From NCBI RefSeq assembly GCF_023250475.1, contig NZ_JAHFAQ010000001.1, positions 134 to 64,133 on the forward strand: 64,000 nt of DNA, given 5' to 3'. How positions within the stretch are numbered: the first letter of the stretch is position 1; every line of letters begins with the position of its first letter. Origin of the DNA: Sulfuricurvum sp. GTDB taxonomy: Bacteria > Campylobacterota > Campylobacteria > Campylobacterales > Sulfurimonadaceae. The notes under the pieces are model-generated. The model did no database searches, was not told the DNA's origin, and worked only from the letters and a program-made list of their open reading frames with translations. This document shows, one piece after another, positions 7,978 to 53,195 of this stretch. A program made the translations under genes and the position numbers.

Positions 7978-7986
7978 GGTTTCTCC

Positions 7987-10321: not shown

Positions 10322-10344
10322 CTGTTCTCCTCACAATTTTGAAA

Positions 10345-11525: not shown

Positions 11526-11528
11526 TAA

Positions 11529-12698: not shown

Positions 12699-12718
12699 TA
12701 ATTCCTCCTGTTATAAGT

Positions 12719-14110: not shown

Positions 14111-15069
14111 TATTTGGCTCCTTCAAAAAATTTATTGGTATTCAACGTATCGATCAACCCTTGAACCGAGGCACACGATGCAGCAAACATCGCTTTCTCT
14201 GTCTCATTCAGGGTGACCTCAATGATTTTTTCAGCACCGTTAGCTCCGAGCATGACCGGAACACCGCTCACAACATTGCTAAATCCGTATTCACCCTCAA
14301 GATAAACGGCACACGGATGGATTTGTTTGGTATCTTTCAAAATCGCTTCAACCATAATAGCCGTCGCTTTTGCCGGTGCATAGTAAGCGGATCCGGTTTG
14401 AAGAAGCGCTACGATCTCTGCTCCCCCTTTTCGGGTTCGCTGTACGATCTCTTCGATCTCATCATGACTCAAAACATCCGACAAAGGGACACCGGCGACG
14501 GTAGAATAGCGAGGCAACGGAACCATGTCATCCCCGTGACCGCCCATAACCGAGGCACGGATCTGCCCTCCGCCGTATCCGAGTTTTTCTTGGATAAATG
14601 CCGCCATACGCGCACTGTCCAACACTCCCGCCATGCCGATAACACGGCTGCGGTCAAATCCGCTTTCGCGTAATGCCACATAGGTCATAGCATCCAACGG
14701 ATTTGAAACCATGATCACGATCGCATTCGGAGAGTATTTTGCAACACCTTCGATCACCTCACGAGTTACTTTGGCATTGATCATTAGCAGATCATCACGG
14801 CTCATACCCGGTAAACGTGGGCTTCCCGCAGTAATAACGACAACATCGCAATCGGTCAAATCTGCCATACTCTCGGCAACCTTGACCGTAGAGTGCGATC
14901 TTACCGCTGCAGCGGCTTGAGACATATCCAACGCTTTGCCTTTGGCTATCTCAATTTTATTATCACGCAAGATGATTTCATGACAAGAGCCAAGCATTGC
15001 AAGCGAGTAGGCTATCGTCGATCCGACATTTCCCGCCCCTACGATTCCAACGCGTTTTCCGTTTATCAT
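14110..15069 (-). CDS. mdh: Malate dehydrogenase (LDH-like)
   Basis: [22 protein letters not shown]. Confidence 0.93.
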
Positions 15070-15165
15070 TTCCTGCTCCTTGTATTATTGCTATTACCCT
15101 CTCCAGAAGAAGATAATTACAAGACGATCTAATCGCCTTTTATCTATAGAGAAAACTCTGCAGAT

Positions 15166-15192
15166 AAAAAACGATCCCGGCGAACCGGAATC
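15166..15192 (-). terminator. Intrinsic terminator after icd
   Basis: Minus strand GATTCCGG-TTCG-CCGGGATC followed by GTTTTTT. Confidence 0.75.
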
Positions 15193-15199
15193 TAAGTAG

Positions 15200-34187: not shown

Positions 34188-34970
34188 ATGTTGAAACGAT
34201 CTTTATTGCTCATACCTCTTTTAAGTGCCGCCTCTCTTTACGGCTCCAATTATTCGGTCTCGGTGAGTGCCGACACCACAAAATTCGACTATGCCGAAAC
34301 TGATAGCAGCGGGAATTTACTTGATATCGAAAAAGCCGGCTACGGCCATATCAATGGCTTCAGTACCAGTCTAAACCCTCGCTACAACGGCATATATATC
34401 AGCGCATCTTACGCCAAGGGTAATACCGACTATGTCGGCGGAACGAACTTAAACCCTATTTACGGCTCTTACCGTACTACCACGACGAATGAAGTCGGTA
34501 ATTATACTTTCGGATACAAAGCAACAGCACTGCTTGATCCGCGCAGCGGGTGGGAAATGCCCGTTACCATCGGCCTCGGATATCGCCGATGGCTCCGTCA
34601 GTTGCACAGCAATGCGGGTGTCACAGGATATGATGAGCTCTATGACTGGGGATATTACGATGCCGGAATCGGGCTGCATTATGCCGTCTCTTCCAAAATC
34701 TCACTCGGCGTCGATGCCAATTATCGAAAAGCATTCAATGCTCAAATGTATGAAAATTCCAACGGCTACACTTTTAATCTCAAAAATGTGTACGGCTACA
34801 AAATTGCCGTTCCGTTTGAAATAGCCATCACTCCGACAATAAGCACATTTTTTTCCTACAATTATGAGTATTGGAATATCGGTGCTTCAAATACTATCGG
34901 AGGATATCTTGAACCCGACAGCGAAACCAAGAATGAAACGCTATCGCTTGGACTAAAGTTTAAATTTTAA
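34188..34970 (+). CDS. Outer-membrane beta-barrel protein
   Basis: Signal peptide, alternating aromatic strands, C-terminal ..LGLKFKF. Confidence 0.75.
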   Translation: MLKRSLLLIPLLSAASLYGSNYSVSVSADTTKFDYAETDSSGNLLDIEKAGYGHINGFSTSLNPRYNGIYISASYAKGNTDYVGGTNLNPIYGSYRTTTTNEVGNYTFGYKATALLDPRSGWEMPVTIGLGYRRWLRQLHSNAGVTGYDELYDWGYYDAGIGLHYAVSSKISLGVDANYRKAFNAQMYENSNGYTFNLKNVYGYKIAVPFEIAITPTISTFFSYNYEYWNIGASNTIGGYLEPDSETKNETLSLGLKFKF

Positions 34971-35000
34971 TACGCTTTATAAGTGCACACGGTATCGATA

Positions 35001-35450
35001 TTAGACTTTGACATCAACCGGTCCTGAATGTAAAGCATCTAATTTGACAAGCACTTCAAGCACTTGTTTATTATTTTGCAGACTTTGAGTGTCACCGAGT
35101 TTTTTATTCATCTCCATACGCGCTTTGAATTCAGAAATCAGATCATAGTTTCCATTACTGTCAGGTGCTGTAAGCATGGCTGAGCCTACACCCATTTGGC
35201 TGGGATCAAAAGATAAAATTGCATGCTCTTTTAGGCTAATATTACCCGAATCATAAAGTTCCTGAGACAGGGAAACAGTTGCATCAAGACTCATAGAATG
35301 AACATTGTAGTTCTGAGCCGTGGTATAAATTCTTTCCGAAGAGACAGCTGTTTCTAATACATTTTGGCTTTCAGATCGCTGTTTCTGTTGTCTGGTTGCT
35401 GAATATAGTTCCGACGAAGTGGTTACTTGCAATGCCCCAATTGTATTCAT
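35001..35450 (-). CDS. Hypothetical protein
   Basis: 149-aa ORF with AGGAGA RBS and a sigma54-type promoter. Confidence 0.7.
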   Translation of the reverse strand: MNTIGALQVTTSSELYSATRQQKQRSESQNVLETAVSSERIYTTAQNYNVHSMSLDATVSLSQELYDSGNISLKEHAILSFDPSQMGVGSAMLTAPDSNGNYDLISEFKARMEMNKKLGDTQSLQNNKQVLEVLVKLDALHSGPVDVKV

Positions 35451-35478
35451 TGATGTCTCCTATAATTGGCAAATTTCA

Positions 35479-35495
35479 AGCAATATTTATTCCAA
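35479..35495 (-). promoter_or_regulatory. Canonical sigma54 (-24/-12) promoter
   Basis: TTGGAATAAATATTGCT = GG-N10-GC, with the -12 GC about 30 nt upstream of ATG 35450. Confidence 0.7.
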
Positions 35496-35599
35496 ACTAA
35501 TTTTAGATAAGATACTTTTTGGAATCAACAAAAAATGAGGGGGTAGTGGAGAACTAATGTATCTCTAAAATGAAGGTCACTACATACTTAAAGTTTAAA

Positions 35600-35959
35600 T
35601 GCTGTGCGTATGATATAAAGATTTTTTCAACGACTTATTTCATCTCTTCAAAATGTACGAGTTAGCATATATTTTAGTCTGTTCTAAAGTCAATCGTCCA
35701 GTTAAATCCAATAATCCAATCTCATTAAGGGTCATTCCACTTTTCTACTCTCTTCATATGTCCAAAATATGATCCGTTAATTATCCATTCAGTACCAATC
35801 TCCGGCATATTGATTCGAAGAATGTATTGGATAGTCCATTCGTCCCGATATTTTGGAATGAACAATCTCGTTAATAGAAATAATACACCGTCGTTCATCG
35901 GTAGCAAGCAAGGTGATAAAAACCGATAATGACATCAGCAAAATGATTTTATGTTTCAT
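35600..35959 (-). pseudogene. Degenerate paralog of the 35963-37069 gene
   Basis: ATG 35959 gives a signal-peptide-like MKHKIILLMSLSVFITLLA..., then YAGDWY*MDN*RIIF (cf. VAWLDNDRVIF in the neighbour) with in-frame stops; distal end uncertain. Confidence 0.45.
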
Positions 35960-35962
35960 CGA

Positions 35963-37069
35963 CTATTCATCTCCTTCGCATAGATTGATCATTTGAATGG
36001 TGCTCTCATTTTTAACGCGTGGACCATCTGTGTGTTTGTAGGCAATTTTGCATCCATCGGGGGATACCGCCAAACCTCGGTGAATATTGTCCAGTCCAGA
36101 ACGTTCATTCCCCACATACCAGTCGTTGAGCCGTACGACCTGTTCTCCGCGAACTAGGTAGGCTCCACTATAAATCTTACCGGGAGGCAGGACATTAGCC
36201 TGTTCGTTGACAACAACGATCCCTTTTTTAGTGATAGCAGCTCGACTGGTGTATTTGTTCCACCAGTAGGCATAAGGGAGCGGATAGTTCTCTAAAGTTC
36301 CATCAGGATGTAGAAATATCAACTCATCTGGACGGCTTGGGAGTTTACCGACCTTGCTTGCTCCAAAAAACATCATCTTAATGATATAGGTATTTGCCCA
36401 CTCATCCCACCAAACCCCTTGGACATCATTAATCGTCAGCGGTAAACCGATCCGTTTCCCATCAGGTCGGATAACCCCTACAGGCGTTGAAGGGCGGGGA
36501 TCATTCCGATCTTTTTTCCATCCTAAATCAATCACCCCGTCTTGATCACGTAACGGATAAGTCCAGTTTGGGGTATCAGGTTTGAATGGTGGAGCATTAT
36601 ATTCAAGACACGTATGTCTGTCATTATGTCTTGTAATAGGGTCTCCGTTCTGCCAAAAACGTTTAACTTTCTCTTTATGTTCAAATCCATTGAATCCATA
36701 AGCACTTTCTTGGGATTGCTCTCCATCGTTATAATATATACTTGAATATCCATTATGCGAACACCACAACATCCCATCATGATAGGGAATAATTTTGTCT
36801 TTTTTCGTATCCCAGATAACGGTCTCTCCATTAAAAACAAACGGCTTAGCTGCTTGCATCTGCAAAAACGGCTCTCCTTTTTTCAGACGGGTAAAGATTA
36901 CCCGGTCATTATCCAACCATGCCACCACACTAGCGCAGTCGGTACACACCTCTTCACCGCTTTTATGGATTGTATACGAATAATCTTTTGTCGGGAACGG
37001 ACCGCTAAATTCGAAGGCGTATCCGTAACAGCCTAATCCAAAAAGAATTAGCCGAAATAATGTTTTCAT
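35963..37069 (-). CDS. Exported hypothetical protein, beta-propeller/TolB-like; immunity-protein candidate
   Basis: Signal peptide, WLDNDRVIF, C-terminal GLAVSPDGCKIAY; GGAGG RBS. Confidence 0.7.
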   Translation of the reverse strand: MKTLFRLILFGLGCYGYAFEFSGPFPTKDYSYTIHKSGEEVCTDCASVVAWLDNDRVIFTRLKKGEPFLQMQAAKPFVFNGETVIWDTKKDKIIPYHDGMLWCSHNGYSSIYYNDGEQSQESAYGFNGFEHKEKVKRFWQNGDPITRHNDRHTCLEYNAPPFKPDTPNWTYPLRDQDGVIDLGWKKDRNDPRPSTPVGVIRPDGKRIGLPLTINDVQGVWWDEWANTYIIKMMFFGASKVGKLPSRPDELIFLHPDGTLENYPLPYAYWWNKYTSRAAITKKGIVVVNEQANVLPPGKIYSGAYLVRGEQVVRLNDWYVGNERSGLDNIHRGLAVSPDGCKIAYKHTDGPRVKNESTIQMINLCEGDE

Positions 37070-41561: not shown

Positions 41562-43499
41562 ATGAAAGCTTTAAAAAGCTCATTTAGCGAATACTTTGCC
41601 AAAAGACGGATACAACAAACCCCGTATTATCTCATTGCATTGTTAACCTTCAATATGATCGTGGTGGTTATGATCACCATAGCCATTTTATACAATCTTG
41701 GTTTTGAACGGCAAAAAAACCGTCTTATCGAACTGGTAGAGACGCAGGCGGTGATGATTAATGTCGTGGCCAAACAAGAGCTTTTACTCCATAGAAACCT
41801 CCCTCCCCTACTGGAAAAACAGCTTGCTGAAAATATCATTCAAAAAGTTACGAACGCTCACTATCGGTACGGAGGATTTGAAAAAACAGGTGAGTTCACC
41901 CTCGGAAAGCATCAAGGTGACGAGATTCAGTATCTTATCAAACAGCGCCATTTCAATATGAAAAAGCCTACCGCTATTCCTTGGAATTCCAAACTCGGGG
42001 AACCGATGCGTCGAGCACTCAAAGGGGAAAAAGGGACGGCGGTAACCTTCGATTATCGGGGGGCAATCGTTTTGGCCGCATATGAGCCGATTAAAGATTT
42101 AGAATGGGGGATTGTCGCCAAAATAGATCTCTCTGAGATTCGCGCCCCCTATATCGAAGCGGCTCAGTACGCGCTGGGACTAACGATTTTACTGGCACTG
42201 ATCGGGAGTCTTATTTTTTGGTATTTTCTTCACCCCTTAGTCAAAGATATCGAAGATTCACGCCATTTCAACCGTATGCTGATTGACAGTTCCTCCACAG
42301 GATTGGCTTTATGCTCATTAGAGGGGAAAATTATCGATGCCAATAAAAGTTTTTTAAAAATCGTCGCCCTTTCAACCAAACGGATACGAGAGTTAACCTA
42401 TTTTGACCTTATAGCAGACACCCTTGTCGAGTTTGAAAGAGGACAATTTTACTCACTTAAACAAAACGGCCGTATCGACCCGTATGAAAGCCTCTACATC
42501 GGTAAAAATTCAGAACCTATCCCCGTCAAAATATCCGGTAAACTCATCTCCATCAAAGGACTGCCGTATGTGTGGCTGAGCGTTGATAATATAAAAGAGT
42601 ATAAAATTCGTGAATCAGAGCTTTTGTTATCGGATGCGGTCTTTCACAGTACCTCCGAAGTGATCTTCATCACCGATACCTCCAAAAATATTATCAAAGT
42701 CAATGAAGCATTTAGCGCAGTAACCGGATTTAGCGAAGAGGATGTCTTGGGGAAAAATCCCCGAATTTTGAAATCGGGAAAACATGACCGTCCATTTTAT
42801 GATGAGATGTTTCAGACGATCAATACGACGGGTAAATGGCGCGGTGAAATATGGAATAAACGAAAAAACGGGGAGCTTTTCCCCTCATTGCAAAGTATTT
42901 CGGCGATTCATGATGAAACGGGGAAACTTATCCGCTACGTTGCGGTACTGAGTGATATCACCGTTCAAAAAGCGTATGAACAGCAGCTCCTTATCGATTC
43001 GCATCATGATGTTTTGACAGGATTGCCAAACCGGCTATTTTTTAACCAAATGCTCACGCAAACCCTTGCCCGAGCGGAACGGGGCGACAAAATATTTGCC
43101 CTCTTTTTTATCGATCTCAATCAGTTCAAAGAGGTCAATGATACTCACGGGCATGAATGCGGAGATATACTCTTAAAAACAATCGCAGTCCGGTTACGGG
43201 ACAATATACGTACAGATGATTTTGTCGCTCGTCTGGGAGGCGATGAGTTTACCATCATTTTTGAATCCGTCAAATCCAAAAAAGAAGCGATCATGGTCGC
43301 AAAAAATCTTCTCAATAAAACAAAAGAGCCTATTTTAATTAACAATTGCGATATCACCCCTTCCATCAGCATCGGTATCGCTTTTTATCCCGAGCACGGC
43401 AAGGATGCTGAAACACTGCTCAAATACGCCGATAAAGCGATGTACCATGCCAAGCATCAGACAACCGAGCATTACACCCTGTGCAATGATATAGACTAA
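41562..43499 (+). CDS. Diguanylate cyclase (periplasmic cache-like + 2 PAS + GGDEF)
   Basis: Two TM, PAS (VNEAFSAVTGF, WRGEIWNKRKNG), HDVLTGLPNR, RTDD..RLGGDEF. Confidence 0.9.
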   Translation: MKALKSSFSEYFAKRRIQQTPYYLIALLTFNMIVVVMITIAILYNLGFERQKNRLIELVETQAVMINVVAKQELLLHRNLPPLLEKQLAENIIQKVTNAHYRYGGFEKTGEFTLGKHQGDEIQYLIKQRHFNMKKPTAIPWNSKLGEPMRRALKGEKGTAVTFDYRGAIVLAAYEPIKDLEWGIVAKIDLSEIRAPYIEAAQYALGLTILLALIGSLIFWYFLHPLVKDIEDSRHFNRMLIDSSSTGLALCSLEGKIIDANKSFLKIVALSTKRIRELTYFDLIADTLVEFERGQFYSLKQNGRIDPYESLYIGKNSEPIPVKISGKLISIKGLPYVWLSVDNIKEYKIRESELLLSDAVFHSTSEVIFITDTSKNIIKVNEAFSAVTGFSEEDVLGKNPRILKSGKHDRPFYDEMFQTINTTGKWRGEIWNKRKNGELFPSLQSISAIHDETGKLIRYVAVLSDITVQKAYEQQLLIDSHHDVLTGLPNRLFFNQMLTQTLARAERGDKIFALFFIDLNQFKEVNDTHGHECGDILLKTIAVRLRDNIRTDDFVARLGGDEFTIIFESVKSKKEAIMVAKNLLNKTKEPILINNCDITPSISIGIAFYPEHGKDAETLLKYADKAMYHAKHQTTEHYTLCNDID

Positions 43500-44761
43500 A
43501 ACTCCCCTCCTCCGCGAACGATGTCCATACCGTATTTATCTCTCATCGTTGTCAATGCTTCCGTAAGACTGCGCATTTTCGTATCGTTTTGTATTTCAAG
43601 GAGGTTGAAACTTTTCGGATCATGATGGATAAACTTGGTGGCACTCATAGCGATATAGCGGATACCGCTGTGGGGATAAATATCCAATTCTCTGAATTTC
43701 TCTAGGGTGAAAGATTGCAGAAATGTTTCGTTAAACAAACGATAAAGGGTGTACTGTTTCTTCGAATTTCCCCAGTTCTCATATCCCAATGAAAACGAAT
43801 ACGTTGTCGGATTGACTCCCAGTTTCATAATGGTATGACTCCAATGGCGCACCAGAATATGGATACGGCGGAAAAGTTCATCTCTATCGTGAACCGGATG
43901 ATCCATGGAGCGTGATATCCCTATCCCTTTGCGCGATCGGCTCGGTTGTACACTTTCATTGTCCTCACCTCTGAACCGTCCATAAAGTTCCCTGCTCTGA
44001 GTTCCCCAAGATTGAATCAACGTCTCCGATCTCCATGCGTCACCGATGCTTTTGATACCGTAACGCTCCATTTTAAGCGAAAACGCTTTTCCGACACCGG
44101 GGAATTCGCCGATGGGAATGTCTTTGACAAAGGATTCTATCTCATGGTTATGAATAACGCGAACGCCGTAAGGTTTAGCCGATGACGTCGCCAGTTTGGC
44201 AATCCATTTTGAACGGCTTGCTCCGATGGATACGGGCAATTTGAACTCTATACTAATTTGATTTTGGAGATGTCGTACAAACTCATAGGTGTCGGCTTCG
44301 TCGATCCATCCTCGAAGATCGCCGAACATCTCATCGATACTGTACTGTTCCATTACGGGTACGGCGGTAGAGAGGTACTCCATCAATTCATGGCTCATCG
44401 TATGGTAGAGCAGATGGTTAGGAGGGAGGAGAATAAGATGGGGACAGAGACGGAGAGCTTCATGAACGCTCATGGCGGTTTTTATCCCGTAAGCGCGCGC
44501 TTCATAGCTTGCGGTCGTGATAATCCCCCGCATCTTATCTCCATCTTTAAAATAATGGCGGCTGTCGTGTTCCGCATGAAAGAGCGAAGGGACAAAAGCT
44601 CCCGTATTCAAAGTCATCAGTTTTTTGTTACGGGAGGGATTTTTATCAAAGATAAACGGATCGCCTCGCCCCCCTACGGCCACACACTTTCCGTTCAATG
44701 AGGAGTTGTGAACCCGTTCGCACGAAGCAAAAAAACAGTCAAGATCTAAATGGATAATCAT
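43496..44761 (-). CDS. dinB: Y-family DNA polymerase (Pol IV-like)
   Basis: IHLDLDCFFAS, TASYEARAYG, YSIDE, SKWIAKLA. Confidence 0.88.
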   Translation of the reverse strand: MIIHLDLDCFFASCERVHNSSLNGKCVAVGGRGDPFIFDKNPSRNKKLMTLNTGAFVPSLFHAEHDSRHYFKDGDKMRGIITTASYEARAYGIKTAMSVHEALRLCPHLILLPPNHLLYHTMSHELMEYLSTAVPVMEQYSIDEMFGDLRGWIDEADTYEFVRHLQNQISIEFKLPVSIGASRSKWIAKLATSSAKPYGVRVIHNHEIESFVKDIPIGEFPGVGKAFSLKMERYGIKSIGDAWRSETLIQSWGTQSRELYGRFRGEDNESVQPSRSRKGIGISRSMDHPVHDRDELFRRIHILVRHWSHTIMKLGVNPTTYSFSLGYENWGNSKKQYTLYRLFNETFLQSFTLEKFRELDIYPHSGIRYIAMSATKFIHHDPKSFNLLEIQNDTKMRSLTEALTTMRDKYGMDIVRGGGEF

Positions 44762-44829: not shown

Positions 44830-46095
44830 CTAAAGCAGCTCTAATTTATACAGAAACAACCGCTCTTTATACGAGGGGATATCGAGTTCCTGACGGTATT
44901 TGGCGATCACACGGCGTACCATTTTGACTCCGAAACGCTCTTCGATCATCTCATGAAGCGTTTTATCGCTAAAGGGGTCATCTTTATTCTCACTGGATAC
45001 GAGACGTTTCAGAAAATGTTTGATCTCCGATGTGGAGACTTCGCCGATCGAGTTGGAAAAAAAGTCTTTAAACGCATACAGTCCCCGCTCAGTTTGGATA
45101 TATTTATCGGCAATTGCACGGGAAATCGTCGATTCGTTGAATCCCAGTTCATCCGCAACATCCTGAAGACGGAGAGGCTTGAGTTCTCCCCCCATAAAAA
45201 AGCCGTACTGCTTCTCAATAAGAACCAATGCGACATTGTAAAGGGTCGCTTTGCGCAGGTCGAGTAGTTTGACAAGTTCCCGCGCTTCTTTGAATTTTTG
45301 GCGGGCAAAGTTATCGTATTTATCGATCATATTCACCTGCAAATCGGGATAAAATGCATGATTGATACGGATATTCAGTTCCGACCCCGCAAATTCGACA
45401 AACAGATCGGGGGTAATCTGCGTTTCCGGTTCCATATATTCCAAAGCAGGCGGATTTCGAAGATGCTGCAACACCGATTTGGCGTCATGCAAGCGTGGAT
45501 GGTTGATAAATTTCTCCATCTTGTCAAACTGCAAGATCATCGCCCCCAGCAAGATACTCAATTCATCATCCAAATCATAATCGCTGAGTTGAAATAAAAA
45601 CGACTCCTTATAATCGACCGCTCCGACACCCGAAGGCTCCAAATGGGCGAATCGCTGACGAACTCTTTCTACGGTATAAGCATCGGTATCGCACTGCTGC
45701 GCCACCTCTTCCACCGATCCCTCGAAATACCCTTCATCATTAATATAGTAGACAATCTGACGGGCAATCTTTTGCGATATAGGGGTCGGAAACAGCGGCG
45801 CTACAATCTGTTCATCAAGTTTTTCATAAAGAGAGGCGGAAGAGATACTGAGCCATTCGATCTGATCGCTTGAAGCGTTGGAAACATAGTTTTGAAATGC
45901 ACCGTAGGCCGAAGTGCCTCCAACGCCGGAATTGGACTCTTCAAAACCCGACTTGACTTCCAAACAAGGGTTTTCGTTCGTAATAACTTGCAGGTGTTTT
46001 TCGAGATCGTTCAGAGAGCATTGCAGCAACGGCAACCACGTCTGCATCGATAATCTTGGTAATTGTTTTTGTTTATAAGAGAGTGTTGTTTGCAT
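44830..46095 (-). CDS. rpoN: RNA polymerase sigma-54 factor (divergent RpoN box)
   Basis: WLPLLQ, ENP.LE, EPSGVGA, PLRLQDVADELGFNESTISR, RRVIAKYR; start adjusted to ATG 46095. Confidence 0.92.
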   Translation of the reverse strand: MQTTLSYKQKQLPRLSMQTWLPLLQCSLNDLEKHLQVITNENPCLEVKSGFEESNSGVGGTSAYGAFQNYVSNASSDQIEWLSISSASLYEKLDEQIVAPLFPTPISQKIARQIVYYINDEGYFEGSVEEVAQQCDTDAYTVERVRQRFAHLEPSGVGAVDYKESFLFQLSDYDLDDELSILLGAMILQFDKMEKFINHPRLHDAKSVLQHLRNPPALEYMEPETQITPDLFVEFAGSELNIRINHAFYPDLQVNMIDKYDNFARQKFKEARELVKLLDLRKATLYNVALVLIEKQYGFFMGGELKPLRLQDVADELGFNESTISRAIADKYIQTERGLYAFKDFFSNSIGEVSTSEIKHFLKRLVSSENKDDPFSDKTLHEMIEERFGVKMVRRVIAKYRQELDIPSYKERLFLYKLELL

Positions 46096-46235
46096 AATAA
46101 TCCGCCTAAATAAATACACACTTACACAATCAAATGCATATTTTGTTCTTATGGAAAGTATAGGCTTTTTTTAAGCAGTATTATGATCAAAAAATAGGCA
46201 GTTTCTATTCGTGGTGAGCGTATCGAAATATGGTA

Positions 46236-46293
46236 GTCATGCTGAACTGGATTCAGCATCTCATATTAGACCCCGAATCAAATTCGGGGTGAT
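46236..46293. repeat. REP-like element: two inverted GTCA-led palindromic units
   Basis: GTCATGCTGAActggaTTCAGCATCT and AGACCCCGAATcaaATTCGGGGTGAT (reverse orientation), 6 nt apart. Confidence 0.7.
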
Positions 46294-46323
46294 ACTATGA
46301 ATCATCAATATGATGAAGAGGTA

Positions 46324-46614
46324 TTAGTATTTAATGCGTACCAATCCATTTGGTGCGACGACTTTCATCTGACAAGCAAGACGGGCTTTAGGGTTGCTTT
46401 CATTAAGCGTTTTAAGTACCGCTTTCTCTTTATCCGTTGTAGGGCTCATATACTCCATACCGGATTCGATCATTACGACACAGGTACCGCATTCGCCGTC
46501 ACGGCATCCGAACGGAAGTGCACTACCTGAAGCTTCAACGATATCTTGGATCGTTTTGCCCGGTATGACGTTGATCGCCAAAAAGTCATTCATAATTTCT
46601 ACACGTGTTGTCAT
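46324..46614 (-). CDS. [2Fe-2S] ferredoxin, nif-associated
   Basis: FGCRDGECGTC...RLACQ. Confidence 0.88.
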   Translation of the reverse strand: MTTRVEIMNDFLAINVIPGKTIQDIVEASGSALPFGCRDGECGTCVVMIESGMEYMSPTTDKEKAVLKTLNESNPKARLACQMKVVAPNGLVRIKY

Positions 46615-46702
46615 CCCAACTCCTTTTATACGATTATGATATTAGCCGCAAGGGCACCAATTCTTCATGATACTATATGCAAAAATCTCAGAAAAGAGCG
46701 TT

Positions 46703-47149
46703 CTATTCCCCCTCTTCGTGAGATTGCGCCGCTTTTTCAGCGGCTTTCTTGGCGCGGTGTTCTTTGATCCATCGTAGTTCTTCGGCGACCTCATCATAGC
46801 CGTCATCCTCAAGAGCGCTCTCCAGCTCCCCTTCACGGCATCCGAATATCAGCCCCTCTTCGATGAAATTGACTTCATAAACCCGTATCGTCTGCAAAAA
46901 ATCACCGATGGCACGAACGTATCCTTCGGCACCCGCTTCAACAAGAGTCTCGCCGACCCCCGCATGAGGATAGGTTCCGTCATTACGGATCGTTTTGGTC
47001 AATCGCACCCTCTGACCGACTCGATAAAGAGAAAGGATCTCGTCTTTGGTCGACATTTTGTAGAGATTGGTTTTCCGCGATGCCTCATCAATCGGCATAT
47101 TCTCTTCAGAAAGTGACGGTGTTTTGGCTGACACAGGCGTGGACTCCAT
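46703..47149 (-). CDS. nifZ: Nitrogen fixation protein NifZ
   Basis: GQRVRL.K.IRNDGTYP...GE.LV..G.EGYV..IG.FLQ...VY.V.F.....GCREGEL. Confidence 0.88.
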   Translation of the reverse strand: MESTPVSAKTPSLSEENMPIDEASRKTNLYKMSTKDEILSLYRVGQRVRLTKTIRNDGTYPHAGVGETLVEAGAEGYVRAIGDFLQTIRVYEVNFIEEGLIFGCREGELESALEDDGYDEVAEELRWIKEHRAKKAAEKAAQSHEEGE

Positions 47150-47480
47150 GACTGACCTCCTCTACGCTGCTACAGCTGCTTGATGTGGAACAGGTACCGC
47201 AAGCGCTCGGCTTGTCGAACATTTCCCAGACATCGGCGGCTGATGGGCTATAGCCGTTTTCAAAATTTTTGTAAACGGTAATAAGGGCGAATTTATAATA
47301 TTCGAGCAATTTTTCATCGTTTATGAAATCATGCCCTTTGGCTTTTTCCACTAACTCTCCGAATTTTTTCATCATATGAAAACGTTTTACCTGAACCAAA
47401 CGCTCATCGTATGCAAGATCGAAAAAATCAAAAAAATCTTCGGTATCGGTGATTTTTTGAAATTCAGCTAACGTTCCCAT
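47106..47480 (-). CDS. nifW: Nitrogenase-stabilizing protein NifW
   Basis: EDFFDFF.L.YD...V.VKR.H..KKF. Confidence 0.8.
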   Translation of the reverse strand: MGTLAEFQKITDTEDFFDFFDLAYDERLVQVKRFHMMKKFGELVEKAKGHDFINDEKLLEYYKFALITVYKNFENGYSPSAADVWEMFDKPSACGTCSTSSSCSSVEEVSHGVHACVSQNTVTF

Positions 47481-47490
47481 AACACTCTCC

Positions 47491-48006
47491 TTATAATCCC
47501 ATCTCGCTTTTGAGCTGGGTTGCCCAACCGAGAACTCTCTCTTCGGTCAAATCTTCCTGATTGACATCATCAATCCCTAATCCGCAAAACTTTCCGTCCC
47601 GTTCTGCCAGTGAAAATTCATAGTCGTATCCGCTGGTTGGAATAAATCCGTGTGCTTCGGATCCGAGCGAGACAAAAAGATCGTGCATTTTCCCCAATGC
47701 ACTCAAAAAATGTTCGCCATGCGTCTTTTGATCGCCCGCACCGAAAAAGGCCACTTTTTTACCGCTCAAGTCGGGACGTTCGTTATCCAGTTCATAGAGA
47801 GGGTCAACCCAGTCACGCTGAGGATCCCCTTGTCCCCATGTAGACGAACCGAGGATCAATACGTCGAAATCTTCAAATTGATCGATTCCGTCAAAATCCT
47901 CTTCCATATCGATCAGTTCCGCACCTTTGAACTGCTCTGCCAAAAGCTCTGCCGCTCCACGCGTCACACCGCTGCTGCTACCGAAAAAAATTCCAACTTT
48001 TGCCAT
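47491..48006 (-). CDS. Long-chain flavodoxin (NifF/FldA-like)
   Basis: GIFFGSSSGVT, GSSTWGQGD, FFGAGD, GLGIDDVNQ. Confidence 0.9.
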   Translation of the reverse strand: MAKVGIFFGSSSGVTRGAAELLAEQFKGAELIDMEEDFDGIDQFEDFDVLILGSSTWGQGDPQRDWVDPLYELDNERPDLSGKKVAFFGAGDQKTHGEHFLSALGKMHDLFVSLGSEAHGFIPTSGYDYEFSLAERDGKFCGLGIDDVNQEDLTEERVLGWATQLKSEMGL

Positions 48007-48016
48007 TGTTTACTCC

Positions 48017-48469
48017 TTACCCTTGTTGTATGCACGGTTTGTATTGTTCATAAATCTCAATTGCGCTTGAGAGTGATTTATCTCCGTCTTCGAAGAGTGC
48101 ATCTAGCGTTCGATAACTGAAGCGATGCGCATCTTTAAAATATTTGTTGACGATACAGATACGATCGGCAATGACCGCACATCGTCCGAATCCCTCATGG
48201 CTCATCTCCATAATGACGTTACAGACAACTCCCGTTTTACGCTCGAAAGACAATGCGATCGCTTTATAGATCATCTTGATATCGTTGATCATCATCTCGT
48301 CGATGTCGGCAATCAAAGGAACCAGTTTGATCTCTTCTTTGGTCTTAACATATTTTTTGACCAACAACTCTTCATCACCTATTCTCGCCCAGTTTCCGAA
48401 CTGATCGAGGGCGCGGATCTGACGAACGATCTCAAGACCGAAATCACTTAATTTTGTTTCTGCTTCCAT
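48017..48469 (-). CDS. NifX-associated nitrogen fixation protein (DUF269)
   Basis: QIRALDQFGNW, FER.TG, HEGFGR, DAHRFSY; start adjusted to ATG 48469. Confidence 0.85.
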   Translation of the reverse strand: MEAETKLSDFGLEIVRQIRALDQFGNWARIGDEELLVKKYVKTKEEIKLVPLIADIDEMMINDIKMIYKAIALSFERKTGVVCNVIMEMSHEGFGRCAVIADRICIVNKYFKDAHRFSYRTLDALFEDGDKSLSSAIEIYEQYKPCIQQG

Positions 48470-48494
48470 AATTGGATCCTTGTTTATGTATCGT

Positions 48495-48947
48495 TTATTC
48501 GCCCTCGGCCCAGCGATCCTGTCGCACATCGTGTTCGGTTTGCATTTGCATGATGTTTTTAATCCACGGCGGAGGATTGCCGTTAATCATGGTCACTAAG
48601 TTTTTAAGGACGTCTTCGATCCGCGTCATATCATTTGCTTTCATCGGATGAATCCCCGCACGTATCACTTTTGCCGCAGCGGTTCCGCCGATGCTTTCCG
48701 AATACATGATATTAACTCCCTTGAGGGCACGAACACGATAATCGGTTTTGTCATCATCTTCCGGTTCCGTGCTGTCGGTTTTAATCACTTCTGAGAGTTC
48801 AAATCCCTCTTTGGAAACGTTGTACACAACAAACTCTTTGGCTCCGCCGAAATGGGCATTGATCTCTTCCATATCTTTCGTCGCAAAAGCGACTTTTAAA
48901 GCATTTTTCATTTTCGTATCCCCTTCAATCGTAATTTTAGTGTTCAT
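48495..48947 (-). CDS. nifX: FeMo-cofactor carrier NifX
   Basis: KVAFAT.D...INAHFGGAK.F..Y, IGGTAAAKV..AGIHP, NPPPW. Confidence 0.9.
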   Translation of the reverse strand: MNTKITIEGDTKMKNALKVAFATKDMEEINAHFGGAKEFVVYNVSKEGFELSEVIKTDSTEPEDDDKTDYRVRALKGVNIMYSESIGGTAAAKVIRAGIHPMKANDMTRIEDVLKNLVTMINGNPPPWIKNIMQMQTEHDVRQDRWAEGE

Positions 48948-50235
48948 GCTTGACCTTCCTCAATTCGTTAGCGATCTCGAATAAAAAGTACGTGCTTCCT
49001 TCATACAGTTGATCGTTTTTGAGCTGGTTCCCTAACTCTTCATAGTTCGGGAATCCTCGGATAACGAGCGCCGTATTCTCTACACTATGCAAGATTCGTT
49101 CTGCATGAAAATTACTGATGACCATATCTGCCCCTTCAAAAAATCGTTCTGCATCTTCCAAATCTCCGACGAAAACATTTTCCGCTTCAATGGTGTGGAG
49201 AACATCGCTAAATGTCGTAGACACCGCTGCGGTGATCGTTCCACCGACACTGCGTATGAGTGCGCACATTCCCGAGAGCATATCGGGCTCTCCCGTAATA
49301 ACGAAGTGGGAAGTACCGATAAGAAAATGGGAATCGAGCATTGCATCCTGCAATCGGGCACGCCATCGTTTAATCAACGGTTTCGGCTCAGAGTGTCGTA
49401 TTTTCATGAGCGCACTTACAAAATTGTCACACCCCTCCAACCCCATCACATGATCGAAATGGAGATGCTCGATAAGGGGATTCTTTTTTTGCAAAGCAAG
49501 CGCCGATTTTTTCATAGAAGCACCAAGTGAGACAACAACCGAAGAGGTTGCGAGATCACGTATCTGTTCCACCGTAATCCCGCCGTTTGAGAGTTTCCCC
49601 TGCCCCTCTTCCCAGTATCCGTCGAGGGAAGTAGAGAGATCGGGAAGCGCATACGTTTCAAAACCGAAATCCTCACAAAAACATTTGAGTTTTTCGATCT
49701 CTATAGGCTGCATACTCAGATGAGGCAACAGTACGAGTTTATTCGGTTTTATTCCGGTGGCGGCTTCGGTGATTTGCTCGATCATTGCGGTGACGGTGAG
49801 TGACCATCCGCTCTCCATCCCCCCCTCATAATCGGGAGTATTGACGAATACATAGGGGATTTCGATGTGCATCCCCACACCCCGAACATCATCCCCTTTC
49901 GTCTCCGTCAGTCCCGTCGTGTGCAGACCGATCATGGACGGTTTGAGATTTTTTTCTTTGGACTGAATATTCTCTATCGCCATAAGGATCGAATAATCAC
50001 CGCCGTCGAGAACGGCGGTGATATCGCTGACCGAAGTGTTACGCACGGCGATGGGTTCGTTGAAATGACGTGTGAAGAAAACTTTGGTGTACGAGGCACA
50101 CCCTTGTGCGCCGTGCATGAGGGGCATGCAATCTTTTACCCCTAAAAATGCGAGGGTTGCCCCCATCGGCTGGGAGTGCTTGATCGGATTGACTTGAAGT
50201 GGTTTATGCTCATGACGAGAGAGGGAGAATTCCAT
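48937..50235 (-). CDS. nifN: Nitrogenase FeMo-cofactor scaffold NifN
   Basis: NPIKHSQPMGA, HGAQGCASY.KVFFTRHFNEPI, TTGLTETKGDD. Confidence 0.93.
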   Translation of the reverse strand: MEFSLSRHEHKPLQVNPIKHSQPMGATLAFLGVKDCMPLMHGAQGCASYTKVFFTRHFNEPIAVRNTSVSDITAVLDGGDYSILMAIENIQSKEKNLKPSMIGLHTTGLTETKGDDVRGVGMHIEIPYVFVNTPDYEGGMESGWSLTVTAMIEQITEAATGIKPNKLVLLPHLSMQPIEIEKLKCFCEDFGFETYALPDLSTSLDGYWEEGQGKLSNGGITVEQIRDLATSSVVVSLGASMKKSALALQKKNPLIEHLHFDHVMGLEGCDNFVSALMKIRHSEPKPLIKRWRARLQDAMLDSHFLIGTSHFVITGEPDMLSGMCALIRSVGGTITAAVSTTFSDVLHTIEAENVFVGDLEDAERFFEGADMVISNFHAERILHSVENTALVIRGFPNYEELGNQLKNDQLYEGSTYFLFEIANELRKVKHEH

Positions 50236-50260
50236 GGCAACTCCTTGTTAAAAGGAGTAT

Positions 50261-50277
50261 TGCAAGAAGTGTGCGAG
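50261..50277 (-). promoter_or_regulatory. Non-canonical sigma54-like promoter of nifN
   Basis: CTCGCACACTTCTTGCA: CG-N10-GC in place of GG-N10-GC; 16/17 identical to the nifE motif. Confidence 0.65.
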
Positions 50278-50292
50278 AAGGCTTATTCTAGG

Positions 50293-51123
50293 CTACAGTG
50301 TTTTCTCTCCATAGATATGAACATCTCTCTGCGGATAAGGGATTGTTACCTTCGCATCATTGAGCGCTTTGTAAATCGCCATATTGACCTCATACTGCGT
50401 TTTGAAATAACTTCTCGTCGGAACCCAGTAACGCATCCCGATCTCGACGGCGCTATCTCCGAACTTCTGTATCCCCACAACCGCTTTGTTCTCACCCGAA
50501 AGGCTATCAAAAGCGTCGATTACCCGCTTGATAAGCTCGATCGCTTTTTCGGCATCATCATTATACGAAATGCCGACACTCGATTCGACGATTCGGTAAT
50601 CGAACGAGTTGACGATCACCTCTCCGATCATATTTTTATTGGGGATCGTAATCAGCTCTTCATCTTCGGTTCGAAGTGTCGTATACCCCAGTTTGATCTC
50701 TTCGACGATACCGTAGACTTTATTGACCAAGATCGTATCGCCGAGTTTAAAGGGGCGGGTGATCACCAAGGAGATCCCCGCTGCGAAGTTGGCAACCGTC
50801 CCCTGCAAAGCCAAACCTGCCGTCAGAAAAATAGCACCAACCGCTGCGACAAAAGGGGCGATAGATATGCCGAGCTTCCCGATCGCTATAATAAACATCG
50901 CACCGAATACCAGAATACGGACGACATTAGCTGCGAATTTGCCCAAAGTTGCATCAAAATCGTGCGTACTGAAAAATCGGATTAAAACAGTATAGATGTA
51001 CTTCGAGAGAAACCATCCGATGGTGACGATGATAACGGCACCGATAATTTGAAAACTGTAATTCGTCAAAAACTCTATACTCAGTTCATAAAACTGTTGA
51101 ACGTAATGCAATTCCTGATTCAT
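50293..51123 (-). CDS. Small-conductance mechanosensitive channel (MscS family)
   Basis: GLALQGTVANFAAGI..VITRPFKLGD, IPNK, V.ISY.DD, IPYPQRDVH. Confidence 0.9.
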   Translation of the reverse strand: MNQELHYVQQFYELSIEFLTNYSFQIIGAVIIVTIGWFLSKYIYTVLIRFFSTHDFDATLGKFAANVVRILVFGAMFIIAIGKLGISIAPFVAAVGAIFLTAGLALQGTVANFAAGISLVITRPFKLGDTILVNKVYGIVEEIKLGYTTLRTEDEELITIPNKNMIGEVIVNSFDYRIVESSVGISYNDDAEKAIELIKRVIDAFDSLSGENKAVVGIQKFGDSAVEIGMRYWVPTRSYFKTQYEVNMAIYKALNDAKVTIPYPQRDVHIYGEKTL

Positions 51124-51171
51124 AGTATCTCCTTGACAATCAAAAAGAATATTATGCCCAATTATTTCTCT

Positions 51172-52530
51172 CTACATCTCCCACGGAGCCGGTTTTCCGA
51201 CATTGGCAAAAACAGGATTACGGAACGCGTATTTCAAATCTTCCGCGAGATTGAGCAATCCGCCGTATCCGCCGTAGCTCGTTTTCTTCTCCTGATTGAC
51301 ATCAATAAAGGAGATTTTTTTCTTGATCGCCGTATAGAGACTTCGCCCTCCCGCTAGGAGAATATGTGCCCCTGTAGAATCGATAATTTTTCCCTGCTCG
51401 GAAGCGGGCTTTGTCATCAAAACACCGTTCTCCCCCAAATATTCGCGCGCTTTATCAATATCATCCTGTGTCGATTTGGCAACACTCGTCGCTACCACTT
51501 CGATCCCCAAATCCTGCAACCCCGAAGCAATCGACCACGCTTTGTTTCCGCCGGTATTGAGAACCGCTTTTTTCCCGCTAAAGAGGGCTTTGTACGGAGC
51601 CAATTTCACTTCCAAAGCCGCCTCTTCCTCCGCGATCACGGCTTCGGCACGCGCAATGAGTTCAGGAGATCCCAAAGCGTTCACGATCTCTCGGATAGCA
51701 AACGATGTATCACGCTTGCCGTAAAACGACACCGATATCCACGGGATACCGTACTGCTCCTCCATTTTACGAGTCAACGTAATAAGCGATTTGGCGCAGA
51801 CGATAACATTGAGTTTGGCACGATGTGCCATGCGGATATCGCCTACCCGACCGTCACCGCTTAGTGAGCTGAGGATACGGATGCCGATCTTCTCAAAAAT
51901 AGGTAAATACTGCCACATATCCCCTGTTACGTTGTAATCACCGATAAGATTGATATCGTAAGGGGTTGTTTTTTCAGGCTCTTTCGTACCGATCAGATGT
52001 TCCAATACCGCTTCCCCGGCTAGACGTGAACCGAGATTTTTGCTTCCGACAAAACCTGCCGCATGAACCGGAACGACGGGAATCCCGTGTTTTTCACTTG
52101 CTCTCTTACAGGTCATATCGATATCATCTCCGACAAGTGCCGTTACACACGTCGAATAAACGAAAATTGCTTCGGGACGATAGTTTTCCATAATATAATC
52201 GATCGATGCGTCCAAACGCTTGTCCCCGCCGAATATGACGTCATTGGTCGTGATCCCAGTGGTAAATCCCATCTGGGTATGATCTCGTCCGGGATACGAC
52301 GTTTTTGTCTCACGAGTCTCCCATGATGCTCCCAGACACGTTTGGGGGCCATGAACAAGATGAATGGCATCCGAATATGGGAAAAGGGAAATTTGGGCAC
52401 CGTCAAAAGCGCATCCCCCTGCGGCAAGTCCCGGTTTAGGCTTATCGCACCCCTCTCCCGGTTTTTTCTCTTTGCTGTGTGAACAGGCGCTCTCATTCAT
52501 AAGTTCTTTAATTTTCGCGCGGCTGACCAT
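51172..52530 (-). CDS. nifE: Nitrogenase FeMo-cofactor scaffold NifE
   Basis: GGCAFDGAQI, VHGP..C, YSTCV.AL.GDD, SKNLGSRLAGEA, INLIGDYN. Confidence 0.93.
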   Translation of the reverse strand: MVSRAKIKELMNESACSHSKEKKPGEGCDKPKPGLAAGGCAFDGAQISLFPYSDAIHLVHGPQTCLGASWETRETKTSYPGRDHTQMGFTTGITTNDVIFGGDKRLDASIDYIMENYRPEAIFVYSTCVTALVGDDIDMTCKRASEKHGIPVVPVHAAGFVGSKNLGSRLAGEAVLEHLIGTKEPEKTTPYDINLIGDYNVTGDMWQYLPIFEKIGIRILSSLSGDGRVGDIRMAHRAKLNVIVCAKSLITLTRKMEEQYGIPWISVSFYGKRDTSFAIREIVNALGSPELIARAEAVIAEEEAALEVKLAPYKALFSGKKAVLNTGGNKAWSIASGLQDLGIEVVATSVAKSTQDDIDKAREYLGENGVLMTKPASEQGKIIDSTGAHILLAGGRSLYTAIKKKISFIDVNQEKKTSYGGYGGLLNLAEDLKYAFRNPVFANVGKPAPWEM

Positions 52531-52563
52531 AGGATACTCCTAAAGCTGAAGTATCCTTTCCAA

Positions 52564-52580
52564 TGCAAGAAGCGTGCGAG
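52564..52580 (-). promoter_or_regulatory. Non-canonical sigma54-like promoter of nifE
   Basis: CTCGCACGCTTCTTGCA, CG-N10-GC, 34 nt upstream of the ATG. Confidence 0.65.
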
Positions 52581-52589
52581 CAGAGGCTT

Positions 52590-53195
52590 TTACATTCGTT
52601 TAGTGGCGGTTACCAGAAATATCGGATAGTTTTTGTTCTCTTTCTCAACGCTATGGGCATGATGAAATCGGACATGATCAAATCCCGCTTTTTCAATCGT
52701 TTCACGCAATATCTCTCTCTCAAATCCCAAATGGTAGACTCCCTCATTTCCATGGGAATGGAAAGTTCCGTCTTCCGCTTCAAGATCGGCAATTGCGATA
52801 AATCCGTCTGGTTTGAGATGGTCGTGAAATGCGCTGAATAAAGCTGCCGTGTCTTGGACATGATGCATCGCCATTGAGCTGACAATCCCGTGAAACTGTT
52901 TTTCCAAAGCCTCTTCGCAAATATTTTGACAAATCGCTTCCACATACATATTTTCGGTATTTTTACTCTCCAGCTGCTCCAGCATCTTTTCGGAGAGATC
53001 GACGCCGGCAACACTTTTGACCATCGGAGCGATTTTAAAACTAAGCAGCCCCGTCCCCGCACCGAAATCCAAAATATTCATATGATTTAATAAAGCGATT
53101 CGGCTCGTAATGGTTTGAAAGACGGCTTGGGCGATATTTTGGCGCATATCTCCCTGATCCCATCCCACGGCGGCTTGGTTAAAACGTTCACTCAT
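52590..53195 (-). CDS. Class I SAM-dependent methyltransferase
   Basis: LDFGAGTG, GVDLS, SSMAMHH, IADL..EDGTFH. Confidence 0.88.
   Translation of the reverse strand: MSERFNQAAVGWDQGDMRQNIAQAVFQTITSRIALLNHMNILDFGAGTGLLSFKIAPMVKSVAGVDLSEKMLEQLESKNTENMYVEAICQNICEEALEKQFHGIVSSMAMHHVQDTAALFSAFHDHLKPDGFIAIADLEAEDGTFHSHGNEGVYHLGFEREILRETIEKAGFDHVRFHHAHSVEKENKNYPIFLVTATKRM

Follow-up and report, generated by a model that had tools for sequence, protein, structure and literature searches.

The rpoN gene studied here, which encodes a sigma-54 factor, lies within 64,000 nucleotides (nt) of Sulfuricurvum sp. DNA (the window), in which genes were called by Pfam and NCBIfam. It stands directly downstream of a cluster of nif genes on the same strand. 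The genes of this locus, in the direction of transcription, are as follows.

52590-53195, minus strand: S-adenosylmethionine (SAM) methyltransferase (MTase) gene (Pfam)
51172-52530, minus strand: nifE (PF00148)
50293-51123, minus strand: MscS-type mechanosensitive channel gene, inserted between nifE and nifN (PF00924/PF21082/PF05552)
48937-50235, minus strand: nifN (PF00148)
48495-48947, minus strand: nifX (PF02579)
48017-48529, minus strand: NifX-associated DUF269 gene (PF03270/TIGR02935)
47491-48006, minus strand: flavodoxin gene, fld (PF00258)
47106-47480, minus strand: nifW (PF03206)
46703-47149, minus strand: nifZ (PF04319)
46324-46614, minus strand: 2Fe-2S ferredoxin gene, fer2, the last nif-cluster gene ahead of rpoN (PF00111)
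44830-46095, minus strand: rpoN, the nif-island paralog, 421 amino acids (aa) from the ATG at 46095 (PF00309/PF04963/PF04552)
44893-44916, minus strand: RpoN-box codons of this gene, RRVIAKYR, with V opposite T457 of the canonical ARRTVAKYR (alignment to solved sigma-54 structures)
43496-44761, minus strand: dinB, downstream of rpoN (Pfam)

This order bore out the original prediction, which had placed rpoN downstream of the nifE-to-ferredoxin cluster on the same strand and without its usual lptB neighbor. No lptB/ABC ATPase gene was found beside the window rpoN, which is flanked by the ferredoxin and nif genes upstream and by dinB downstream. Between the ferredoxin gene and the promoter-like site of rpoN, two stem-loops were seen at 46289-46271 and 46257-46241, neither of which has a T-run. 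These two stem-loops could set the nif operon apart from rpoN; a terminator scan of the 46241-46289 region reported nothing. The homologs of the window RpoN at 86-95% identity carry the label Sulfuricurvum sp., and in one groundwater metagenome the window locus was present with zero differences.

The window RpoN contained the activator-interacting domain (region I; PF00309, E = 1.6e-6), the core-binding domain (PF04963) and the C-terminal DNA-binding domain with its helix-turn-helix (PF04552). Its TIGR02395 score of 319.1 exceeded the cutoff of 277.35, so that it belongs to the sigma-54 family, and its C-terminal 156 aa aligned to solved sigma-54 chains with E about 1e-26. With NF004602, the epsilon-type sigma-54 equivalog (cutoff 506), it scored 486.8 and fell below the cutoff, while the housekeeping RpoN of Sulfuricurvum (locus L170, described below) reached 602.9. 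The codons at 44893-44916 gave the RpoN box as RRVIAKYR, as had been read before. Compared with PROSITE signature 2 (R-R-T-[IV]-[ATN]-K-Y-R, as given in the original prediction), this box fails at the Thr position only, where it has V, and fits at the others. The accompanying claim that this Thr is near-invariant was too strong, since a comparison of 137 diverse RpoNs whose box could be recognised gave T at the third position in 118, S in about 10, V in 6 and A in 3. Hydrogen bonds to the -24 DNA have been proposed for three residues, T457 among them, and Klebsiella sigma-54 lost both its DNA binding and its in vivo activity when it carried the double substitution T457A/V458C (PMC2715252). The base contacts come from R455 and R456, and altered R456 re-targets the second G of the -24 GG (PMC12096077, PMC7175178).

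Putative promoters were found before nifE, nifN and rpoN, and a flagellar-type GG site in the window was used for comparison. The transcription starts were predicted by the convention that the C of the GC is -12, and the scores are those of a position weight matrix (PWM).

52564-52580, minus strand: putative promoter PnifE, CTCGCACGCTTCTTGCA, 33 nt before the nifE ATG; PWM 21.9; predicted start near 52553
50261-50277, minus strand: putative promoter PnifN, CTCGCACACTTCTTGCA, 25 nt before the nifN ATG; PWM 23.3; predicted start near 50250
46135-46151, minus strand: candidate PrpoN, a sigma-54-like site, TAAGAACAAAATATGCA, 39 nt before the rpoN ATG; PWM 13.1; predicted start near 46124
35478-35495, minus strand: comparison site, a flagellar-type GG promoter, TTGGAATAAATATTGCTT, 27 nt before an orphan 149-aa open reading frame (ORF; 35001-35450)

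The reading of TCGCAC at -24 of two nif promoters proved correct: TCGCAC-N5-TTGC occurred on the minus strand at 52565-52579 and 50262-50276, in the intergenic gaps just upstream of nifE and nifN, and a good ribosome-binding site follows each of PnifE and PnifN. With the trailing A included (TCGCAC-N5-TTGCA), exactly two matches were present in 64 kb (52564-52579 and 50261-50276) compared with 0.04 expected, and 0 of 100 shuffles reached two. A third match to the shorter motif, at 57911, lies within a P-type ATPase ORF without the trailing A and was taken as chance. Moreover, a weight matrix made from the nifE sites of relatives gave only three hits in the window, which were PnifN, PnifE and the site before rpoN. 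When the sites were compared with the -24/-12 pattern, the GC and the 10-base spacing were exact, and 10 of the 11 specified positions of the TGGCAC-N5-TTGCW consensus matched; the -24 dinucleotide was CG at PnifE and PnifN and AG at PrpoN instead of the required GG. No other GG-N10-GC register around nifE and nifN fits, as the GG and GC pairs found there have spacings of 8 or 13. In the search for a basal promoter before the window rpoN, sigma-70-like matches were at chance frequency.

The normal GG-N10-GC site that had been noted at 35479-35495 was recovered as TTGGAATAAATATTGCTT. It fits the flagellar sigma-54 consensus of Campylobacter jejuni perfectly (GGaa-N6-tTGCTt, PMC3847290) and is presumed to be a target of the housekeeping RpoN. 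The orphan 149-aa ORF behind it may belong, so far unrecognised, to the flagellar/housekeeping sigma-54 regulon. Three ORFs at 34188-37069 (260, 149, and 368 aa), this one included, were without a Pfam or NCBIfam match. An RNA-labelled wastewater run contained a contig that joins 52553 to 50261 with 10 extra letters, which gives the order MscS-promoter-nifE and passes through both promoter copies. This join probably comes from a strain with another gene order (MscS is upstream of nifE in L004, L006, and L015) or from recombination between the repeated promoters.

To place the window in its family, species-representative genomes were scanned with NifE. The scan gave 80 Campylobacterota loci from Sulfuricurvum, Sulfurimonas, and Sulfurovum and from metagenome-assembled genomes (MAGs) labelled Sulfurospirillum, with 82-95% identity to the window NifE. 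Upstream of nifE, each locus that was examined has one site that reads C-T-N-G-[C/T/A]-A-[C/T]-R-N3-N-[T/A]-T-G-C-A; it stands 31-37 nt from the ATG in most loci and about 60-90 nt from it in the smaller share. The 55 distinct nifE sites all agree in the second G, in the A two bases after it and in TGCA, while the first-G position varies (C in 32 sites, A in 15, G in 6, T in 2). Related loci yielded 82 matrix sites at nifE, 29 at rpoN and 22 at nifN, plus nifU; further ones lay before the P-II gene, a hemerythrin-like gene, small Cys-rich ORFs, and nifH. The general form of these nif-type promoters is YTNGNAY-N5-WTGCA. The rpoN site is typically CTAGAACAAAATATGCA in relatives and scored at least 14 in 29 related loci. 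An own site of nifN, about 25 nt before the ATG, was found only where an insert separates nifE from nifN (22 loci) and was absent where the genes abut, so the nif promoter seems to have been duplicated, or retained, along with insertions between the two genes. In L006, L016, L026, and L027, a GG-N11-GC before nifN was rejected because its spacing is off by one.

In contrast to these sites, those at orthologous positions in Arcobacter are canonical GG promoters (TGGGAAT... before nifE, and GTGGAAC/T... before nifX, nifH, and the gene of an iron-molybdenum cofactor protein). The flagellar-type sites of Sulfuricurvum also keep GG and end in TTGCTT, as in TGGAAC-N5-TTGCTT before flgL in L007 and L033 (FlgL by TIGR02550), so that nif and flagellar promoters differ at -11 as well, with A and T respectively. 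In relatives, a GACA-N4-TGTC dyad was found 10-200 nt upstream of nif-type promoters in 15 of 175 regions compared with 0.6 expected, and it may be an enhancer in some lineages; the dyad was absent near the three promoters of the window. The exact spacing, the fixed position despite different flanks, the restriction to nif clusters and the GG at the orthologous Arcobacter sites argue strongly that the nif elements are working sigma-54-type promoters of the nif regulon.

The position of rpoN was conserved as well. The order nifE-(insert)-nifN-nifX-DUF269-fld-nifW-nifZ-fer2-rpoN was kept in essentially every locus that was long enough (about 50 of the 80), and the adjacency of fer2 and rpoN was conserved in about 50 loci, while the position of the MscS gene differs among relatives. 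In the complete Sulfurimonas genomes CP147915, CP147914, CP147918, and CP182225 and in a 1.1-Mb contig from the Joint Genome Institute (JGI), rpoN lies in the middle of the nif region and is followed by genes for P-II, nifU, an aldo-keto reductase (AKR), an FAD protein, nifT, NifA, and nifQ. The activator in the Sulfurimonas nif cluster is a bona fide NifA (TIGR01817 score 537.6, cutoff 528.85). Many Sulfuricurvum relatives also carry P-II, nifU, AKR, and FAD genes after rpoN, and dinB beside the window rpoN is therefore read as a local rearrangement. These results indicated that a nif-embedded rpoN is a trait of the whole family and beyond, present in many sulfur-oxidising Campylobacterota, and is not peculiar to this genome.

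The nif-linked RpoNs formed a clade of their own. In a neighbor-joining (NJ) tree with outgroups, the nif-linked core, which includes the window RpoN, had a bootstrap value of 100, and the housekeeping clade with the RRT box had 87. Identities were 53-79% within the nif-linked clade and 38-46% between the nif-linked and housekeeping clades. Among the 120 closest homologs of the window RpoN, the box read RRS in 92, RRV in 21 and RRL in 7, and none had Thr. Across the nif-linked clade, the residue was S in Sulfurimonas and Sulfurovum, V or L in Sulfuricurvum, and A or V elsewhere, again with no Thr. The RpoN of Sulfurimonas, with 75% identity, was at one point taken as proof of a single housekeeping ortholog, and this was dropped when every close homolog turned out to be nif-embedded. 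A homolog search with the Sulfurimonas RpoN as the query, aimed at RpoNs of non-diazotrophs, gave only nif-linked RpoNs among the matches listed. Arcobacter ellisii (L091, CP032097) has the nifEN...fer2-rpoN synteny too, with nifHDK just beyond; the nif-linked RRT RpoN of Arcobacter was weakly (51%) sister to the housekeeping clade. Arcobacter was reported to have lost the flagellar RpoN/FlgRS system (PMC9321776), and in A. ellisii the nif-linked rpoN may be the only sigma-54 in the cell.

Some observations bear on the history of this gene block. L089 and L090 carry a distant Campylobacterales RpoN (43% identical, box RRSITKYR) followed by the aldo-keto reductase, FAD protein, and NifT genes as in Sulfurimonas. 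There is no nifEN upstream of that rpoN, and the neighbors have diverged to the same degree; rpoN-AKR-FAD-nifT therefore looks like an old block. In the NJ tree, the nif-linked RpoNs of Sulfurovum were nested among those of Sulfurimonas and Sulfuricurvum, and the NifE distance to the window was about equal (82-87%) in Sulfurimonas, Sulfurovum, and Sulfurospirillum-like loci. The nesting and the equal NifE distances hint that the nif island moved between genera along with its sigma factor.

The original prediction had also proposed that the window rpoN may be a second paralog, with an RRT-type copy beside lptB as a supporting sign, and this gained support. A profile search with more distant Campylobacterota RpoNs gave proteins from Helicobacter, Hydrogenimonas, and Sulfurospirillum and unlabelled proteins, all with the box RRTI[T/A]KYR, and the tsaE-lptB-rpoN context of the housekeeping loci was seen in L092, L093, L094, L170, L175, and L176. 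Sulfuricurvum, S. kujiense DSM 16994 included, has such a tsaE-lptB-linked RpoN with the box RRTIAKYR; in locus L170, from a JGI metagenome, the order is S4-trpD-tsaE-lptB-rpoN with the same box. The two Sulfuricurvum paralogs are 43% identical and have a single difference within the 8-residue box (MVRRVIAKYR in the window and MVRRTIAKYR in the housekeeping protein). P0373/L093 (GC content 46%) had been considered as the Sulfuricurvum housekeeping copy and was rejected after a metagenome scan gave no close relative, the true one being the P0390/L170 group; L155, tried as a nearer reference than L170, was more distant.

Whether both types occur in one genome was judged from contig sizes and depths. 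The L170 protein falls in a 90%-identity cluster with the RpoN of S. kujiense DSM 16994 (ADR33618.1 / WP_013459815.1) and 'MULTISPECIES [Sulfuricurvum]' entries, and this cluster also includes MAG proteins whose contigs measure 188,555 bp and 979,657 bp. Contigs with nif-type RpoN have these very sizes, namely NZ_JAUYFF010000008.1 (L006; 188,555 bp), whose nif-type RRV RpoN is 96% identical to that of the window, and the JGI contig with P0436 (979,657 bp). From these equal sizes, both rpoN types appear to lie on the same contig in two Sulfuricurvum genomes. Furthermore, four runs that hold the window locus contain contigs collinear with L170 over about 13 kb at roughly 84-85% nucleotide identity, rpoN included. 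The depths of these housekeeping-locus contigs were 9-11, 8-9.5, 6-7, and 39-46, and those of the window-locus contigs in the same runs were 8.7-10.6, 8.4-10, 5.5-7.2, and 40-46; in one of the four depth-matched samples the window locus was 100% identical. The matching contig sizes and depths make it very likely that each Sulfuricurvum genome has two rpoN genes. A comparison of whole-genome shotgun (WGS) accession prefixes between housekeeping-type and nif-type MAG contigs (via P0351) gave no match.

To relate the box to the promoters, the base at the first-G position was tallied by the class of the RpoN box, with this variable base masked in scoring and with distinct sites only.

RRV class: C 21, A 12, T 1, G 0
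RRL class: C 6, A 8, T 0, G 0
RRS class: C 17, A 60, T 0, G 13
RRA class: C 1, A 3, T 1, G 0
Arcobacter RRT class: G 4 of 4

G was found at the first position in 0 of 48 sites of the V and L classes together compared with 13 of 90 of the S class (Fisher p = 0.004, shared ancestry not corrected for), and most of the GG sites in the tally come from Sulfurovum. The pattern is graded: Thr goes with GG; Ser mostly with AG and in part with CG or GG; and Val or Leu with CG or AG and never with GG. This agreed in part with the proposal that a T-to-V change co-evolved with a GG-to-CG change. The exact pairing did not stand, as the clade has S, V, L, and A at this residue and its promoters have C, A, and G; the broader co-variation did stand (0/48 in the V/L classes, 13/90 in the S class, and 4/4 in Arcobacter). 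The suggested co-occurrence of RRV boxes and CG motifs in diazotrophs had a similar outcome. Sites of RRV genomes were never G but were divided among C, A, and T (21, 12, and 1), with AG used before rpoN and P-II, and CG also occurred in RRS genomes, where it is frequent in the nifE promoters of Sulfurimonas. The tally is consistent with the loss of the hydroxyl residue alongside the loss of the first G.

On the whole, we lean toward the reading that the window rpoN is the nif-island member of a two-sigma-54 system, in which the nif paralog has the nif promoters largely to itself. The NG-type promoters would be bound by RNA polymerase that carries the nif-type RpoN and would be opened, under nitrogen limitation, by a NifA-type enhancer-binding protein encoded elsewhere in the genome. 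We consider it likely that nifE, nifN, and rpoN are transcribed from the NG elements and that this NifA activates them. The site before rpoN would let the nif sigma factor amplify its own synthesis as in the nifU2-rpoN of Rhodobacter capsulatus, and by this analogy auto-amplification is moderately probable. The housekeeping RRT RpoN should need GG, so the CG/AG promoters would be largely private to the nif paralog and nif expression would be insulated, at least one way, from the flagellar sigma-54 pool. That the RRT sigma factor cannot use CG/AG, with this insulation as the result, has close to an even chance. In the other direction, since some nif promoters of RRS genomes have GG, the -24 element probably does not keep the nif sigma factor off the flagellar GG promoters. 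A block in this direction would have to come from the -12/-11 region (TTGCA vs TTGCTT) and the cognate activators, as in Cereibacter sphaeroides. In its widest form, the proposal is that Campylobacterota hold a natural orthogonal pair, with an old nif-island RpoN that lacks the Thr, no longer needs the first G and has promoters unreadable by the RRT housekeeping sigma-54, so that the module could move between genera as an insulated expression unit. We put this wider proposal forward tentatively.

Several observations weigh against these interpretations. No nifA was found anywhere in the 64-kb window, nor were nifHDK or nifB, and the classical NifA enhancer TGT-N10-ACA was absent within 250 nt of the three window promoters. 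In Arcobacter, the nif-linked RpoN keeps the RRT box and GG promoters, and linkage to nif therefore does not require altered recognition. The RRS genomes mix GG, AG, and CG in one regulon (in L084, nifU has CTGGAAC and rpoN has TTAGAAC); the nif RpoN therefore tolerates G, and it may be that this factor does not read the first base at all, instead of reading it with a new preference. Very few evolutionarily independent changes underlie the co-variation. The placement of both rpoN types on one contig is deduced indirectly, from equal contig sizes and equal depths. As for expression, the RNA-labelled runs with the locus showed flat contig coverage and no 5' ends, and there is probably DNA in the runs named 'METAGENOMIC RNA-Seq'; the locus was absent from true metatranscriptomes made from the source sample.

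Some of these points would be explained if the paralog were real without any orthogonality. The first -24 base would then be discriminated by neither paralog in these AT-rich organisms, the change from T to S, V, L, or A would be neutral drift, and specificity would come from the enhancer-binding proteins (NifA vs FlgR), the -12/-11 region, and the timing of the sigma factors. The coexistence of GG, AG, and CG in the single nif regulon of RRS genomes fits this explanation, and the variety of residues that replace Thr in a single clade (V, L, S, and A) suggests a weak constraint. The difference of A and T at -11 between nif and flagellar promoters fits it too, and in C. sphaeroides RpoN1 and RpoN2 owe their specificity to base -11 and the cognate activator instead of the -24 element (PMC11999139). 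However, RRT is kept in all RpoNs of the housekeeping clade, and GG is kept in 3 of 3 flagellar-type sites and 4 of 4 Arcobacter nif sites. Pure drift should also have left some GG among the 48 sites of the V/L genomes, and the loss of binding by the T457A/V458C Klebsiella protein (PMC2715252) indicates that the position is not neutral in a GG-reading factor. We regard this paralog-without-orthogonality reading as the less likely one.

It could also be supposed that the TCGCAC-N5-TTGCA elements are no promoters at all but sites of another nif regulator, or remnants inactivated by a GG-to-CG change, with nifE and nifN transcribed from elsewhere. The missing GG agrees with this, and read-through from the same-strand methyltransferase gene 59 nt before nifE is conceivable. 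It is very improbable, however, given that all 55 distinct nifE sites combine exact sigma-54 spacing with an unchanging G, A, and TGCA, that in most loci the site lies 31-37 nt from the ATG in spite of different flanking genes, that the element precedes nifN only when nifE and nifN are separated, that it also precedes nifH, nifU, P-II, and rpoN in relatives, and that the orthologous Arcobacter sites are canonical GG promoters. Even less can be said for a single general-purpose RpoN that moved beside nif and serves flagellar GG and nif CG promoters alike. Nothing in the window supported this, and only the 75% identity to the Sulfurimonas RpoN at first resembled ordinary orthology. It is already contradicted by the tsaE-lptB-linked RRTIAKYR RpoN in S. 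kujiense and Sulfuricurvum MAGs, by the equal contig sizes for both types in two genomes, by the housekeeping-collinear contigs at window-locus depth in four samples (of which one matches the window at 100% identity), and by the NF004602 scores, below the cutoff for the window protein and above it for the housekeeping one; we give it almost no weight.

Elsewhere in the window, a tyrosine integrase gene (3297-4355) adjoins a gene (1856-2914) that encodes no more of a type I restriction R subunit than its N-terminal domain, and 1856-4355 may be the edge of an integrated element. A central-carbon block at 7414-17395 contains genes for a four-subunit 2-oxoacid:ferredoxin oxidoreductase, succinyl-CoA synthetase, fumarase, malate dehydrogenase, and a monomeric isocitrate dehydrogenase. 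This gene content matches the expectation for an autotroph with the reverse tricarboxylic acid (TCA) cycle.

The -24 GG and the RpoN box are regarded as the most constant features of sigma-54 biology. In an environmentally dominant lineage of chemolithoautotrophic diazotrophs (Sulfuricurvum, Sulfurimonas, and Sulfurovum), the nif cluster carries a second sigma-54 with a changed DNA-reading residue and putative promoters that have lost the first G. Genome-wide promoter scans, recent regulon surveys included, demand GG and would miss every nif promoter in these organisms. If the pair of sigma factor and promoters is functionally private, this would explain how nitrogenase expression is kept apart from flagellar sigma-54 control. 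The module would then comprise the nif genes, NifA, its own sigma factor, matching promoters, and auto-amplification of the sigma factor, and would be a ready natural orthogonal set for transferring nif clusters to other hosts. This would also be the first case of a changed -24 specificity in a natural sigma-54, a parallel from nature to the engineered R456 variants, and the contribution of T457 to GG recognition would become directly testable.

Several rpoN copies occur in about 5% of the genomes surveyed in a previous study (PMC12316311). The papers on diazotrophic Sulfurimonas list P-II, NifA, and AraC as regulators in the nif cluster and never mention rpoN (PMC12029903, PMC11474244), and in the open-access literature no paper was found that combines rpoN, nifA, and Campylobacterota. 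It is well known that Alphaproteobacteria have nif-linked, NifA-controlled rpoN genes and specialised RpoN paralogs. The conserved module of Campylobacterota diazotrophs, the systematic replacement of the RpoN-box Thr and the promoter class without the first G appear to be new, as no description of them was found in the open-access literature.

To our knowledge, the rpoN2 copies of rhizobia keep the canonical RpoN box and GG promoters. Like the module described here, these NifA-controlled second rpoN genes travel with a nif or symbiosis island (prxS-rpoN2 of R. etli and the symbiosis island of Mesorhizobium loti; PMC6925177, PMC3538637). The nifU2-rpoN superoperon of R. capsulatus also places rpoN among nif genes (Cullen et al., 1994; PMC6925177). 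A NifA/RpoN-dependent promoter there amplifies the sigma factor when nitrogen is limiting, and a weak constitutive promoter supplies the seed amount of RpoN (PMC6925177). R. capsulatus has one rpoN only, and its promoters carry the canonical GG; the sigma-54-like site of the window stands directly before rpoN and suggests auto-activation.

C. sphaeroides is similar in having several sigma-54 paralogs per genome. According to PMC11999139, which cites Poggio et al. (2002, 2006), RpoN1 is nif-linked and works with NifA, RpoN2 is flagellar, and differences in promoter sequence add specificity. Cereibacter belongs to the Alphaproteobacteria, so the duplication in Campylobacterota is independent. 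The discriminating base in Cereibacter is -11, together with a paralog-specific activator; in the putative Sulfuricurvum system, what stands out in the sequence is a change of the first G in the -24 element and of the Thr in the RpoN box, with A or T at -11 in addition. The housekeeping RpoN and the flgL promoters of Sulfuricurvum fit the flagellar regulon of Campylobacter and Helicobacter (GGaa-N6-tTGCTt, lptB-rpoN, and FlgRS), whereas the window RpoN belongs to the other clade, lacks lptB and the Thr, and lies among nif genes. Finally, the arrangement resembles the engineered orthogonal R456H/Y/L sigma-54 factors, in which an altered RpoN box was matched to an altered GG to give a private promoter set, and which were used to drive a nif cluster (PMC12096077). 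The engineered factors change R456 and the second G (GG to GA, GC, or GT), with orthogonality measured, while Sulfuricurvum keeps RR and the second G and has changed the residue at T457 and the first G, with orthogonality deduced from these changes.

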